18,805 nucleotides of DNA from a virus: UHGV virus genome UHGV-0261633. One strand, written 5' to 3'. The notes under the pieces are model-generated. The model was not told the origin of the DNA. It saw nothing but the letters and a program-made list of their open reading frames with translations, and searched no databases. The position numbers and the translations under genes were made by a program. Of this stretch, positions 3,666-8,407 are shown piece by piece (within the stretch, counting starts at the first letter, position 1; the number at the start of each line of letters is the position of its first letter).

Positions 3666-3741
3666 TGGCGCAGGATAAGGGATTCGAACCCCTATTAACA
3701 GCTTCGTAGACTGTTGCTCTATCCATTTGAACTAATCCTGC
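3666..3741 (-). tRNA. tRNA-Arg (anticodon ACG)
   Basis: Encoded CCA, acceptor gcaggat/atcctgc perfect, T-arm aaggg-attcgaa-cccct, anticodon loop CUACGAA. Confidence 0.8.
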
Positions 3742-3855
3742 TTACCTACAAGAACACCATACAGTTTTTCACAAGAGTTGTTTTTACGCCTGTTTTTGAA
3801 TGACGCTATAAACTTTTTTGCAATTGATTTATTACTCATAGTGTTCTCCTAAAAT

Positions 3856-3933
3856 TGGTGTTCCAAGACGGATTCGAACCGTCACTAGTACAAGGTTTGA
3901 GCTTGCATCCTCTGCCAATTGGGATACTGGAAC
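3856..3933 (-). tRNA. tRNA with leucine anticodon CAA but type-I length (putative tRNA-Leu)
   Basis: Reverse complement GUUCCAG-UA-UCC..GGA-U-GCAAG-CUCAAAC-CUUGU-ACUAGU-GACGG-UUCGAAU-CCGUC-UUGGAAC-A-CCA; 6-nt variable loop, discriminator A. Confidence 0.55.
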
Positions 3934-3934
3934 A

Positions 3935-4009
3935 TGGTACTCACTAAAGGACTTGAACCTTTTTCTTCATCTTGTAAGGGTGATGTTTTACCATATAAAC
4001 TAAGCGAGT
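3935..4009 (-). tRNA. tRNA-Val (anticodon UAC)
   Basis: Encoded CCA, T-arm aaagg-acttgaa-ccttt, anticodon loop CUUACAA. Confidence 0.75.
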
Positions 4010-4011
4010 AT

Positions 4012-4102
4012 GAAAGAGGTCTGAAGTTGTGCCGCTAACTCAACTCCGTGGGATTTGTTACGGTCTTCAGTTGACTCAAAGCGGTCTTTCACTTGACCTC
4101 TA
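4012..4102 (-). ncRNA. tRNA-sized structured element without a canonical T-loop (possible tRNA-like RNA or degenerate tRNA)
   Basis: Outer stem agaggt (4015-4020) / acctct (4096-4101), inner stem ctgaag (4021-4026) / cttcag (4065-4070), internal hairpin ccgt..acgg (4046-4063); no GTTCGAAUC motif in either orientation. Strand not determined from sequence. Confidence 0.3.
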
Positions 4103-4105
4103 AAT

Positions 4106-4181
4106 TGGTGCTCCCACAAGGATTCGAACCCTGATAAGTTACTTACAAGGCAACCGTAATAGCCAATTATACGATAGGAGC
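4106..4181 (-). tRNA. tRNA-Thr (anticodon UGU)
   Basis: Reverse complement GCUCCUA-UC-GUAU-AAUUGGCUA-UUAC-G-GUUGC-CUUGUAA-GUAAC-..-CAGGG-UUCGAAU-CCUUG-UGGGAGC-A-CCA. Confidence 0.8.
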
Positions 4182-4512: not shown

Positions 4513-4593
4513 ATTAAATCTTTTTAGAGAACTTCTAAGAACCTAAGCAACAAGGTTCCACAACAAGCTGTAATAACCTTAGAAGCCCTCTAA

Positions 4594-4613
4594 AAAGACC
4601 TAAATAGGTCTTT
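4594..4613. other. AT-rich hairpin in array spacer (weak terminator-like)
   Basis: aaagacc-taaata-ggtcttt flanked by A/T runs; orientation and function unclear. Confidence 0.25.
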
Positions 4614-4868: not shown

Positions 4869-4951
4869 TGGCATGGGACGGAGGAGTTGAACCCCTTTGA
4901 AACGGTTTTGGAGGCCGTTGCTCATGCCTTAGAGTCTTAACATCGTCCCAT
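4869..4951 (-). tRNA. tRNA-Trp (anticodon CCA)
   Basis: Encoded CCA, acceptor atgggac/gtcccat perfect, T-arm ggagg-agttgaa-cccct, anticodon loop CUCCAAA; D-region longer than canonical. Confidence 0.6.
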
Positions 4952-5093: not shown

Positions 5094-5175
5094 TGGTCGA
5101 GGCGGCAGGACTCGAACCCGCATACTCCACTTACTCGGTTAACGGCGGTTTAGAAGACCGCTGAGATACGCCCCG
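5094..5175 (-). tRNA. tRNA-Arg-like (anticodon UCU) with non-canonical body
   Basis: Encoded CCA, acceptor cgaggcg/cgccccg, T-arm gcagg-actcgaa-cccgc, perfect anticodon arm GCGGU-CUUCUAA-ACCGC; but only 7 nt between acceptor and anticodon stem (no room for a D-arm) and 23 nt between anticodon and T arms. Confidence 0.45.
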
Positions 5176-5423
5176 TAATTATCTTTAAAGACTCTCTTAG
5201 AAAGCCCTTAAAGATGCCCACCTTATTAATCATACCGTGGGCGAGTACGCCAAATTCTTTAATGAGGGATTGGAAGACCTCACTGGTGTTTAGCCTATCA
5301 AGCTACTGCCAGAAAAACATTGTCGTTTGCATTTATTTTAAATTTGCAAAATAGACGCTACGCAACGAAAACTAAGGTTACTATAAAGTAGTCACATCTC
5401 AATGTCAACAACTTTATTGAAAT

Positions 5424-5498
5424 TGGTTGTAGGTGAGGGTATCGAACCCTCTTCTAACGGTTATCAGCCGTTTGCATTACCATTTATGCTAACCCACA
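5424..5498 (-). tRNA. tRNA-Ile (anticodon GAU)
   Basis: Encoded CCA, T-arm gaggg-tatcgaa-ccctc, D-arm gcat-taccattt-atgc, anticodon stem aacgg/ccgtt with loop CUGAUAA. Confidence 0.8.
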
Positions 5499-5500
5499 AT

Positions 5501-5577
5501 TGGAGGTTCAGATGGGAATCGAACCCACATTCATAGGGCTTATGAAACCCCTGCATTACCTTATCTGCGACTGAACC
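5501..5577 (-). tRNA. tRNA-Met (anticodon CAU), elongator-like acceptor
   Basis: Encoded CCA, acceptor ggttcag/ctgaacc perfect, T-arm atggg-aatcgaa-cccac, anticodon stem GGGGU/GCCCU with loop UUCAUAA. Confidence 0.7.
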
Positions 5578-5655
5578 AGAATAAGTACCCTAGTTAGAGA
5601 AACTGTTGAGTGGGTGTTTCCAGCCGCGCAGGTGTTTCTCAGTTAAGGGTGAATT

Positions 5656-5731
5656 TGGTAGAAGTGGAGGGATTCGAACCCATCGCCTGTCAGATTAAAA
5701 GTCTGCCGCATCACCATTCTGCTACACTTCC
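5656..5731 (-). tRNA. tRNA-Lys (anticodon UUU)
   Basis: Encoded CCA, acceptor with terminal G-U, T-loop attcgaa, anticodon loop CUUUUAA. Confidence 0.7.
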
Positions 5732-5736
5732 ATTAA

Positions 5737-5876
5737 ATTATCTTTGTAGATAAGCTACCCAGACTTGCTTAAGGTCTGTAGCGATGTGCCTTTTGGGTTT
5801 AAATCTAGAATTTACCCTTCACCCTTTGTGGTCGCATACTCACAGGTAAGCTTAATAACTTATCTACAAAGATAAT
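5737..5876. repeat. 18-bp perfect inverted repeat flanking a 104-bp ORF-free segment
   Basis: attatctttgtagataag (5737-5754) is the exact reverse complement of cttatctacaaagataat (5859-5876). Confidence 0.85.
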
Positions 5877-5920
5877 TACCAGACCGTTGTTTATCATCTT
5901 AAGTGCTACCATTACACCAA

Positions 5921-5975
5921 CTCGACATCTGCCGAGTGAAGGAATCGAACCTTCGCCTTTTCTTTACCGGAGAAA
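5921..5975 (-). other. tRNA fragment-like element (canonical T-arm plus one hairpin, no matching acceptor 5' strand)
   Basis: T-arm gaagg-aatcgaa-ccttc (5938-5954) and hairpin tttct-ttaccgg-agaaa (5958-5974); no complementary acceptor strand found downstream. Confidence 0.3.
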
Positions 5976-5990
5976 TAGATTGTTTAAGTT

Positions 5991-6018
5991 TTGCTGTAAA
6001 CGGTCTTCTGTAAATTTG
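5991..6018. repeat. 28-bp exact direct repeat, copy 1 (ttgctgtaaacggtcttctgtaaatttg)
   Basis: Identical 28-mer at 6471-6498; degenerate copies at about 6078-6097 and 6638-6658. Confidence 0.85.
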
Positions 6019-6130
6019 TTGAGCCAGACCAAGTTTTAAATTTTCAAAATTAAATTGGCTTGAAATTTCATACATTCTTGCTGTATTTGGTCTTCTGCTC
6101 CTTTAAAGAATACTCGTAAGAACTCTTTAA

Positions 6131-6158: not shown

Positions 6159-6235
6159 TGGCGGCTACGATGAGACTTGAACTCACATCATCTCCCGTGA
6201 CAGGGGAGTATTTTCTCCAGTTAAACTACATAGCC
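6159..6235 (-). tRNA. tRNA-Asp (anticodon GUC)
   Basis: Encoded CCA, T-arm atgag-acttgaa-ctcac, anticodon stem ctccc/gggag perfect with loop CUGUCAC. Confidence 0.8.
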
Positions 6236-6413: not shown

Positions 6414-6470
6414 ATGTTTAGTATTACCAGACCGTATCTTTCAATTTTTCCGCTAAAAATTTAATAAGTA

Positions 6471-6498
6471 TTGCTGTAAACGGTCTTCTGTAAATTTG
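6471..6498. repeat. 28-bp exact direct repeat, copy 2, abutting the 3' end of a tRNA-Met gene
   Basis: Identical to 5991-6018. Confidence 0.85.
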
Positions 6499-6573: not shown

Positions 6574-6664
6574 ATTCTTAATGACCAGACCAAATCTCTT
6601 CTTTGTCCGATTTACCTTCAGATGAATAAGATTAAGTTTGCTGTAATTGGTCTTCTGTCAAAAC

Positions 6665-6826: not shown

Positions 6827-6991
6827 ATAAACTTTTAAAACTCTATGTAACCACTTTAACATTATTTTTTAGTGGCTGTCAAGAACTTTTTTAAAATATT
6901 TTTCAGTATCTTAGAAAAGCTCTCATTTCGTTTCTATGTAGAACATATTAAAGGGTATTAAACACATTGTCAATACCCTTTTTAAAACTTT

Positions 6992-8407
6992 TTACCAGAT
7001 ATAACGGTCAATCATTACTGCTTTGAGCATTACGCTGATTGGGTCAAACTTCTCACCACTAAGCAGAGCTTTTAAAGTGGCTGGAGAGAAACCAGATACC
7101 ATTGCTACACCGTTATCCTTAACAGATACTTCGCAAGTACCATTACGGTTTGCTAAGTACCAGAATACCAGTTGTGGCATCTCATATCCAGCTTTTTTGT
7201 ACTTACTCTGAATTGCTTCAAAGTTTGTACGACCGTTAGCTCCATCAACCTGATTGAACTCCATATCGGAGAAGATGATAAGCTTACTTGGCATATCTTT
7301 CTGAGTCAAGTTGTTTCTTTTACCTGTTTCAAGAATGCGGTCAAAAGCTGCTTGTAAGTTAGTTGAGCCATATTCAACGTGTCGCATCACCTGACGATGA
7401 CGGTTTCGTAAATCACCACTCAGTTCGATGAAGTGAGGGTTTGTCGAATAAACCATCAACTCATTCTTAAAGCAACCTGTATTGCGTTCTGCTACATACA
7501 AGGCAAGTGATACACCAATATCCAGAGCAGTAATGGAGCCAAAATTCACCCAAGACATTGAACTTGATACATCAGACATACACAAGATGTTTTCACCTTC
7601 TGCCATCCAGTTTGGTAGTGCTTTCCACTGCTCATTAGCAACATCTGCATTACCATACTTGACAGATTTAATCACATCGTATGGGTAAACAGCACCAGCG
7701 TTAATCTTAGTCTCACCTTTTGATAAGGACTCGATGTAAGCTTTGTAACGCTCTCCATCTTTACGGTTAAACAGTTTTTGGTAACGTGCAGCAGCAAGTG
7801 AAGGAATCTTACTGTAGTCAATCTTACCAAACTCATTAGCAGAGATTTTTTGCTCAACTGTATCAGATAGTGCAGACAACAGTGTGCGGTACTCTTTCTC
7901 ACTCAAGTTGGCAAACTTGCAGAAACGTTTTACAAACTGCTTATGACGTGGTTTGACTCGTGGTAACCACTTAGCCGCCAAACCTGCTGTTGCAGGGTCT
8001 AGTAATGCTGCTTCTAAATGTTTGAAGGCATCTGTCTCGAAACGAGTACCTACGAAGATTTTGAAGTCATCAAAACGACCAAGTTCTGCAATCTTATCCA
8101 TAATGCGAAGAACCTGTGTAGGCTCTAAAACTTTATCTTCAATTGCTTGAAGCAAAACAGTTCTGAAGGCTTTACGCTCACCCATACCTTCTCGTACATC
8201 TCGCATATGCAGTAAAATACGAACTGCAACATCAACATCCTCACGCAAAGCTTTGTAGAACAGGTCTGGTAAGATTTCTACATTGCTACGGCTTGAACCA
8301 GCAGCTTTGTAAAAGTCTACAAGAGCAGACATTGATGAAGTATGGTTTACAGCACCATTTTCAGTTCGACCTGCATGAAGGTGCGCATGTTTAAATAATT
8401 CGCTCAT
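6992..8407 (-). CDS. von Willebrand factor A (vWA/MIDAS) domain protein, 471 aa, with ~270-aa helical N-terminal domain
   Basis: ORF track; C-terminal half has a DxSxS MIDAS motif (ILCMSDVSSSMS) and a vWA-like hhhhSD motif (KLIIFSDMEFNQ); GAGAG RBS. Domain call is from motif recognition only. Confidence 0.8.
   Translation of the reverse strand: MSELFKHAHLHAGRTENGAVNHTSSMSALVDFYKAAGSSRSNVEILPDLFYKALREDVDVAVRILLHMRDVREGMGERKAFRTVLLQAIEDKVLEPTQVLRIMDKIAELGRFDDFKIFVGTRFETDAFKHLEAALLDPATAGLAAKWLPRVKPRHKQFVKRFCKFANLSEKEYRTLLSALSDTVEQKISANEFGKIDYSKIPSLAAARYQKLFNRKDGERYKAYIESLSKGETKINAGAVYPYDVIKSVKYGNADVANEQWKALPNWMAEGENILCMSDVSSSMSWVNFGSITALDIGVSLALYVAERNTGCFKNELMVYSTNPHFIELSGDLRNRHRQVMRHVEYGSTNLQAAFDRILETGKRNNLTQKDMPSKLIIFSDMEFNQVDGANGRTNFEAIQSKYKKAGYEMPQLVFWYLANRNGTCEVSVKDNGVAMVSGFSPATLKALLSGEKFDPISVMLKAVMIDRYIW

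Follow-up and report, generated by a model that had tools for sequence, protein, structure and literature searches.

A conserved long-stem RNA in the tRNA array of Felix O1-like phages and its possible link to a Ro60-fold protein

The 18,805-nucleotide stretch of the viral genome UHGV-0261633 analysed here (the window) covers the tRNA array of a Felixounavirus, read on the minus strand, in which an inverted repeat at 5736–5877 closes a conserved RNA fold on the tRNA-sense strand. This element represents a structured RNA family that is new, has good support and is not in Rfam. As to function, our tentative preference, held at somewhat short of an even chance, is that it is a Y-RNA-like non-coding RNA (ncRNA) cut from the tRNA precursor at its long stem, and one of several partner RNAs of a Ro60-fold (Ro-like) protein encoded nearby; the repeat would then be the terminal 5'–3' helix of a discrete structured ncRNA of about 142 nt.

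The inverted repeat and its fold

An earlier note had pointed to a perfect 18-bp inverted repeat inside the array. The arms proved exact over that length, positions 5737–5754 of the plus strand reading attatctttgtagataag and 5859–5876 being the exact reverse complement, with 104 nt in between. Perfect complementarity runs further, to 19 nt (5736–5754/5859–5877), and a repeat search allowing one non-Watson-Crick position lengthened it to 22 nt (5736–5757/5856–5877). The 19-nt repeat is the longest perfect inverted repeat in the window at spacers of 3–250 nt and lies far above chance level, the longest perfect repeats in 200 dinucleotide-preserving shuffles measuring 9–14 nt. At its outer edges the plus strand reads CCATTA/AATTATC on the left and GATAATT/ACCAGA on the right.

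The element lies, as the note had placed it, within the tRNA array, between tRNA-Asp (6159–6235) and tRNA-Lys(UUU) (5656–5731). All tRNAs of the window, 25 called by ARAGORN and one found by Rfam only, are on the minus strand, and the region matches Felix O1-like phages that infect Escherichia and Salmonella (Felixounavirus, Ounavirinae) at 93–100% identity. Its description as free of open reading frames (ORFs) holds in practice, the overlapping ORFs being of only 21–47 amino acids (aa), although short opposite-strand coding sequences (CDSs) are annotated in some deposited genomes. In Bas63 the region carries the label bas63_0138.

Folding bears out the long stem that had been predicted for the transcript. 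On the minus strand a 24-bp helix, G·U pairs included, encloses a four-branched interior of 98 nt in the minimum free energy (MFE) fold; the MFE of 5732–5885 is −48.3 kcal/mol (z = −5.1), and none of 200 shuffles was as low. The right arm of the repeat (5856–5877) forms the 5' strand of this terminal helix and the left arm (5736–5757) its 3' strand, which is separated from the 5' end of tRNA-Lys by UAAU (4 nt). Within the interior, hairpin region H1 (5819–5849) contains the motif GAGUAUGC at 5834–5841, for which comparison of lineages by eye gave the consensus RRGUAKGC. Hairpin H2 (5795–5817) carries an apical UUCUAGA (5804–5810) that includes the palindrome UCUAGA with its CUAG core, and hairpin H4 (5760–5778), with stem CAGAC/GUCUG and loop CUUAAGCAA, adjoins the terminal helix at its 3' strand.

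The pairing was tested with 20 distinct sequences, using slid alignments and 500 shuffles as controls. The 24 pairs of the closing stem were 95.7% paired, with five pairs altered on both sides, among them U-A to C-G and G-C to C-G changes; the five pairs of H4 were 100% paired and four were altered on both sides. The slid controls paired at 29–45%, and the observed value was reached by none of the 500 shuffles. At several stem positions many sequences have G·U or U·G, combinations that become A·C mismatches on the other strand. The covariance model derived from the alignment (R1) scored 150.8 bits on the sense strand versus 26.4 bits on the antisense strand, and found a single sense-strand copy in the window. 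The suggestion of a small structured RNA is thus strongly supported, stem and inner hairpin being kept by compensatory changes in about ten lineages with differing arms. No Rfam 15 family matched 5732–5885, either at the gathering threshold or at E ≤ 10, and no description of the element was found in the Felix O1 genome paper, in Rfam or in the later literature on the Bas63 protein gp130, to which we return below.

Conservation among Felix O1-like phages and deeper lineages

The 154-nt segment containing the element occurs once per genome in 190 records at 93–100% identity, and a diverged version is present in about 60 further records from Mooglevirus, Suspvirus and the Salmonella subgroup typified by BPSELC-1. 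Arm sequences differ among some ten lineages with pairing kept, and a terminal stem of 20–30 bp and an interior of about 100–120 nt are found throughout. The element ends 0–8 nt before tRNA-Lys(UUU) in every related lineage examined, including Yersinia phage vB_YenM_P778 (P778) and the loci L015–L022 and L217–L221. In P778 a 21-nt repeat with a 120-nt spacer lies 4 nt 5' of tRNA-Lys(UUU); its arms are unrelated to those of the window and its architecture is alike. This element scores 79.9 bits with the covariance model, and the Ro-like protein of P778 is only 53% identical to that of the window.

Five metagenomic relatives (L217–L221) were located through homologs of the Ro-like protein, with identities of 80, 63, 56, 53 and 53%. 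Each has a model match ending 0–8 nt 5' of tRNA-Lys(UUU); four of the five have E-values from 7e-32 to 6e-4 (L217, 6e-11), and the fifth, L219, is weak at 18.5 bits (E = 0.02). Each of these elements folds with a 20–30-bp stem and an interior of about 100–120 nt, H4 abutting the 3' strand of the stem. In a set of 11 sense sequences nearly all terminal-stem pairs are canonical, each position showing two to four types of pair, and H4 is 100% canonical, in an alignment that is model-guided, fitted to the structure and hence biased towards it.

The stem of H4 varies by lineage and its loop remains CYUWAGCAA-like. The loop CUUAAGCAA is borne on stem CAGAC in the window and other Felix types, CAGUC in L217 and UGUUC in L219, and the loop CUUUAGCAA on CAGACC in the BPSELC-1 type and on CAAACC in the Moogle and Susp types and L218. 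The stems AAAGUC of P778, AGAGAC of L220 and CAACC of L221 carry CCUUAGCAA, CCUAUGCAA and CUUGAACAA, respectively. The possibility that H4 mimics the anticodon stem-loop of tRNA-Lys was considered and rejected: CAGA/UCUG is common to both in the window, and the two stems do not co-vary across lineages.

The RRGUAKGC motif near the 5' side recurs, by eye, across lineages. The UUCUAGA loop of H2 is invariant in all 26 sequences of the Felix, Moogle and Susp types, and A-to-G changes in its stem yield G·U pairs. L217 has ACUAGU in this loop, retaining a CUAG-centred palindrome, and H2 is not recognisable in the most distant, P778-like lineages. An interpretation of the H2 loop as an amber-suppressor-like anticodon loop was rejected, UUCUAGA having become UACUAGU in L217 and the loop being unrecognisable in P778-like lineages.

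Model R1 revealed no further family members in 72 loci with distant Ro-like genes (36–47% identity), and the RNA family is restricted to the Felixounavirus/Mooglevirus/Suspvirus/P778-like lineage. A pattern scan of IMG/VR for the 3' arm returned mostly chance matches and little new diversity.

BLAST matches to this region of the array come in several pieces because genes for HNH homing endonucleases are inserted in relatives. Their insertion points vary (841–1326 in L001, 298–702 in L002 and 2014–2442 in L008), and in Felix O1 itself ORF44 is an HNH homing endonuclease gene between tRNA-Ile and tRNA-Lys. The window has no such insertion near the element.

A Ro60-fold protein is encoded upstream

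About 1.1 kb upstream of the element and on the same strand lies a gene (6992–8407, minus strand) for a protein of 471 aa with Pfam DUF2828 and DUF7788 domains. It is an ortholog of gp130 of phage Bas63 (97.7% identity by tblastn), and a mycobacteriophage "Ro-like RNA binding protein" is a full-length homolog at about 33% identity. A sequence search of the PDB with this protein gave no match, Ro60 being seen by fold search only. Its AlphaFold model (pLDDT 88.7, pTM 0.88) shows a Ro60 fold: the top 12 PDB matches in Foldseek are all Ro60, from Thermus phage phiLo, Xenopus, human and Deinococcus (Rsr), with E-values of 5e-9 to 8e-7 and TM-scores of 0.48–0.64, and isolated vWA domains rank after them.

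Bas63 gp130 has been reported to counter the bacterial defence system Ppl, and the authors of that study suspected Y RNAs among the "tRNA genes" of the array. Phages carry Ro60-like proteins widely, in 710 records, and very often with a tRNA array as the neighbour; in many of 80 metagenomic phage loci (L013–L094) the DUF2828/DUF7788 genes stand next to tRNA arrays on the same strand. The lineages concerned are very diverse, which points to a functional connection of a general kind between these proteins and the arrays.

The element was found in about 250 records, compared with 251 records that have the neighbouring Ro-like gene (protein identity of at least 80%), and it was seen only in genomes carrying that gene. 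Erwinia phage Tian, a member of the Ounavirinae with a compact array, has no Ro-like gene, no element and none of the repeat units described below anywhere in its genome.

Transcription and the repeat units of the array

A sigma-70-like promoter (TTGACA-18-TAAAGT with a TG; 6853–6882, minus strand) was found by promoter scan upstream of tRNA-Pro, where the nearest good promoters lie, and is the likely start of the element-containing transcript. Between it and the element the minus strand has no promoter- or terminator-like site apart from a weak 9/12 match at 6494, and the scan revealed neither kind of site inside the element. Nor did it find an intrinsic terminator at the element, where UAAU and the tRNA come after an A+U-rich stem.

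A 34-nt repeat is present four times in the spacers that lie between tRNA-Glu and the element, and each copy folds together with a downstream GGUCUGG into the same module. This comprises, in order, helix A, an AGA/G internal loop, the 7-bp helix B (AGACCNN/NNGGUCU) and a single-stranded UUACAGCAA. Helix A covaries between units (UUAC/GUAA, UGAC/GUCA, AGC/GCU), and ACAGCAA occurs four times within 650 nt, all of the units sharing the bulged basal helix. The minus-strand units are designated U1 (6582–6660, between tRNA-Glu and tRNA-Met), U2 (6424–6493, between tRNA-Met and tRNA-Asn), U3 (6022–6099) and U4 (5876–6013); U1 and U2 are of U3-type architecture. U3 has the basal helix of U4 and the ACAGCAA motif, without a tRNA-like domain. 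U1–U3, which share the 34-nt repeat ACAGAAGACCNNUUACAGCAA and the downstream GGUCUGG, are YrlB-like candidates. Felixounavirus, Mooglevirus, Suspvirus and L217/L218 have them, and Tian and the part of the Arno18 array that was sampled do not.

U4 abuts the element. Its basal bulged helix (UUAC-AGA-AGACCGU/ACGGUCU-G-GUAA) is followed by UUACAGCAA, and then come a V- or anticodon-like hairpin (5959–5975), a T arm (5938–5954), a closed acceptor hairpin (5920–5937) and a D arm (5903–5917). The 7-bp acceptor stem is closed by the tetraloop AGAU, and the tRNA-like part is enclosed by CUUAA/UUAAG and the bulged basal helix. When the sequence was rejoined in tRNA order with the inner hairpin as anticodon arm, ARAGORN called a tRNA-Thr(GGU)-like molecule; an alternative de-permutation with the Y stem as anticodon stem gave no call. 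Rfam has a weak partial tRNA match at 5937–5987, and the acceptor hairpin shows compensatory changes in Mooglevirus. The permuted order of hairpin, T arm, closed acceptor and D arm defines YrlA-type Y RNAs, and by sequence and predicted fold U4 is a circularly permuted tRNA mimic of this type. Several genomes have opposite-strand CDSs annotated over U4.

YrlA-like RNAs with 23–25-bp terminal stems followed by UACAGCAA or UGCAGCAA are also found in more distant phages (L024, 3771–3913 and 4040–4187; L025, 4081–4226), and one distant Ro-like locus has a non-permuted counterpart, a tRNA-like RNA that has, in place of the anticodon arm, a hairpin with CGUAA and UUACAGCAA on its two sides. In L024 the RNAs stand beside a Ro-like gene and their long stems run directly into UACAGCAA, and therefore, in RNAs of this kind, the motif goes with a long terminal stem.

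The element as a possible Y-like partner RNA

Since the element always stands alongside a Ro60-like protein, it is probably one of that protein's Y-like RNAs, at the tentative level given at the outset. In the proposed pathway it would be transcribed on the minus strand within a polycistronic precursor of the tRNA array, and its terminal helix, a near-uninterrupted duplex of at least 22 bp that joins both RNA ends, would be a natural substrate for host RNase III. We propose cleavage by this enzyme because the duplex, at least 22 bp long, keeps its length and not its sequence. The cut would free the element from the YrlA-like U4 upstream and from tRNA-Lys(UUU) downstream, and RNase P would then finish the 5' end of the tRNA. 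The released RNA would have the shape of a Y RNA, with a long terminal stem and a large, partly folded interior, and would bind the Ro60-fold protein through its stem/H4 region. Y RNAs use their interior to engage other factors such as exoribonucleases, and that of the element may likewise engage another factor, for example a host exoribonuclease. What the analysis shows is the structure of the RNA, its strand, conservation and position, and the fold of the neighbouring protein; Ro binding, RNase III cleavage, the discrete stable RNA species and any downstream activity are all predicted steps.

A common protein partner is proposed because the H4 loop resembles the UUACAGCAA of the four units and of YrlA-like RNAs beside Ro-like genes: the loop reads UUA-AGCAA and the unit motif UUAC-AGCAA, and the element presents its version as a hairpin.

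The locus criterion that Chen et al. (2014) applied to bacterial Y RNAs is a distance of no more than about 4 kb from a Ro60 ortholog, with both on one strand; the element (5736–5877, minus strand) and the Ro60-fold gene 1.1 kb upstream of it share a strand and lie within that distance. The shape is also that of a Y RNA, in which paired ends form a long stem around a large loop in an RNA of about 80–130 nt: here the stem is of 24 bp, the interior of 98 nt and the whole, at 142 nt, slightly long. The Ro60 of Thermus phage phiLo binds two phage-encoded Y-like RNAs, each with a 5'–3' stem and a large internal bulge, and recruits host PNPase.

With the known Y RNAs (YrlA/YrlB of Salmonella and Mycobacterium; Yrl1/Yrl2 of phiLo) the element thus shares a nearby Ro60-type gene on the same strand, a like order of size, paired 5' and 3' ends closing a large, partly structured interior, and the presence of several RNAs per locus; its neighbour U4 has the hallmark of YrlA, a tRNA-like domain with a loop-closed acceptor stem. 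The element differs in that it has no motif of the GNCGAA/CGAA or GGUCCGA type, its only candidate being the unrelated CYUWAGCAA loop, and in that its stem is longer and essentially perfect. No tRNA-like domain is present in the element itself, 5736–5877 containing no tRNA-model match even at E ≤ 10, whereas the adjacent U4 has one. It is further set apart by being embedded in, and presumably co-transcribed with, a tRNA array, and by a protein that matches Pfam DUF2828/DUF7788 and not TROVE by sequence, its binding to the RNA being a prediction. Because both the motif for Ro binding and YrlA's tRNA-like domain fail, we do not file the element as a member of the Y RNAs; it is best called a Y-RNA-shaped, array-embedded long-stem RNA.

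The terminal helix also resembles RNase III processing stems such as the helices of the 16S and 23S precursors (rrn) and the sites in T7 early RNA, being a long-range duplex of about two helical turns that flanks an RNA in a polycistronic precursor and is conserved in pairing and length and not in sequence. Such a substrate is expected to have two turns, or no fewer than about 20 bp, of double-stranded RNA (dsRNA) with few interruptions, and this geometry is present both in the window (24 bp) and in all lineages (20–30 bp). T7-type sites differ in having internal loops, whereas the stem of the element is nearly perfect and the enclosed RNA small; cleavage is again a prediction.

An RNase III step has been reported for the tRNA cluster of T4, on which a literature search gave nothing usable. 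T4 also has two stable RNAs, "species 1" and "species 2" (rnaC and rnaD), of about 120–140 nt, which lie among the phage tRNA genes and are matured from the same precursors. The element is like them in its small size and its location among phage tRNA genes, which is an analogy only; T4, unlike the phage of the window, is not known to have a Ro-like protein.

Several observations weigh against a Y-like role. By direct reading the element contains none of the canonical Ro-binding motifs (GNCGAAN0-1G, the bulged helix with GGUCCGA, and CGAA), its terminal stem offers a protein no conserved sequence to recognise, and the H4 loop drifts to UGCAA and AACAA in the most distant lineages. The only invariant neighbour of the element is tRNA-Lys(UUU), and the units are gone, with the element kept, in lineages whose Ro-like proteins are 53–56% identical to that of the window. 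Co-occurrence of element and Ro gene is weak as an argument, amounting to roughly one gain or loss contrast in one clade, and RNase III cleavage of the stem is plausible from helix geometry only. Finally, Bas63 gp130 alone, from a plasmid or moved into T7, restores plaquing of T7/Bas63 on Ppl, and therefore at least the Ppl phenotype needs no phage-encoded RNAs.

A wider reading, possible if doubtful, is that what are called "tRNA arrays" in Felix O1-like phages are operons mixing tRNAs with Y RNAs, which follow the gene of an anti-defence protein with a Ro60 fold and encode at least five partner RNAs for it. These would be the three simple units, the one permuted tRNA mimic and the present long-stem RNA, which is the most widely conserved; all would share an (A)GCAA-type recognition loop unlike the canonical Ro60 site. 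Host tRNA processing and RNase III would excise the RNAs, and the resulting ribonucleoproteins (RNPs) might redirect a host nuclease or shield phage RNAs.

The locus offers concrete RNA candidates with coordinates, structures and motifs (U4 as a permuted tRNA mimic of the YrlA type, the simpler U1–U3 and the long-stem RNA family) as possible partners of a protein whose near-identical Bas63 counterpart is reported to neutralise a bacterial defence. If these RNAs bind the protein, a non-canonical Ro recognition motif would be defined and a phage Ro RNP would become experimentally tractable in E. coli and Salmonella. Even without binding, the element is a new structured RNA with good support, and one by which phage annotation can be corrected, several deposited genomes annotating it as short hypothetical CDSs on the wrong strand.

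Alternative explanations

The strongest alternative, which we consider somewhat unlikely, is that the element is a real and discrete structured ncRNA that acts independently of the Ro-like protein, either as a decoy or sponge for a host factor or as a dimer formed through the palindromic CUAG loop; its terminal stem would only define and protect the ends. All of the structural evidence fits this equally well, and the interior motifs RRGUAKGC and CUAG are unlike any known Ro60-binding sequence. The double change from UCUAGA to ACUAGU retains the palindrome, and both the action of gp130 on Ppl without phage RNAs and the persistence of the element where the U units have vanished point the same way. 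Against it stand the likeness of the H4 loop to the motif of neighbouring units and of YrlA-like RNAs beside Ro-like genes, and the finding of the element only in genomes with a Ro-like gene.

Less probable, and in our view unlikely, is a processing or insulating spacer, in which the stem would sequester the spacer and provide an entry site for RNase III or RNase E, the flanking tRNAs would mature and the functionless interior would be degraded. Nearly every spacer of the array is indeed a module closed by a terminal stem and has a negative z-score. A second long hairpin of about 33 bp (4514–4603, minus strand; z = −5.3), which contains UUACAGC and is conserved in Felix-type IMG/VR loci, ends in AAAAAGAUUUAAU 1–2 nt before tRNA-Leu(UAG) and has a similar AAAGAU..UUUAAU 3' boundary. 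The spacers at 4008–4108, 3740–3858, 5575–5660 and 5181–5215 (minus strand) have z-scores of −2.1 to −3.7, some with related motifs (GAAGACCGUAACAAA; CGUAAAAACA), and a 17-bp hairpin with AAUUA precedes the tRNA at 5097–5175. Conservation of stem length and not sequence is, moreover, what a dsRNA-specific nuclease predicts. A processing stem, however, has no need of a 100-nt interior, and this interior keeps a covarying H4, its conserved loop and other motifs even where the Ro-like proteins are only 53% identical; many tRNAs of the array stand only 2–8 nt apart without any such structure.

A cis-acting 5' leader of tRNA-Lys(UUU), controlling its maturation, level or protection, is improbable. 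Its appeal lies in the constancy of that tRNA 0–8 nt downstream in all lineages, the upstream neighbour being variable. Such tight linkage is equally explicable as co-inheritance in a compact array, and RNase P needs no such leader; neither complementarity to nor co-variation with the tRNA was found, the H4 stem not tracking the anticodon stem of tRNA-Lys.

An element acting as DNA, whether the miniature insertion once suggested, a cruciform or origin, or a protein-binding palindrome, is very improbable in spite of its perfect terminal inverted repeats and of arms that are each palindromic in turn (TTATCT-N4-AGATAA, the only two such sites in the window): the flanks have no direct repeat outside the palindrome that could be a target-site duplication, the approximately 250 genomes show one copy each, no presence/absence polymorphism and no empty site, which together remove the insertion reading, and the arms diverge with pairing kept through G·U, an A·C mismatch on the other strand or in DNA. 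An operator reading of the arms was dropped because their internal palindrome is lost in Mooglevirus and Suspvirus.

Other tRNA-like sequences and long-stem elements

The tRNA at 5097–5175 (minus strand) is the one found by Rfam only (31.7 bits), with no ARAGORN call; the gene in relatives is annotated as tRNA-Arg(UCU). A weak tRNA-Sec-like match lies at 4875–4949, and weak tmRNA-like matches at 5177–5481 are probably tRNA-like pieces.

Another clade of phages with Ro-like genes has long-stem elements of its own in its tRNA arrays (L078, 244–409; L080, 1452–1608; L057, 112–277 and 267–462; L067, 1162–1318). Their stems are of 21–31 bp with arms like ACCAUAAUAUAGUGUA, their interiors of 107–134 nt have no AGCAA motif, and some of them lie 4–5 nt 5' of a tRNA. 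P778-like phages have a further long-stem element between the Ro-like gene and tRNA-Pro (L013, 5647–5838, with 27-nt arms and a 138-nt spacer; L219, 6836–7032), and the counterpart of that place in the window (6827–6991) contains promoters and a hairpin.

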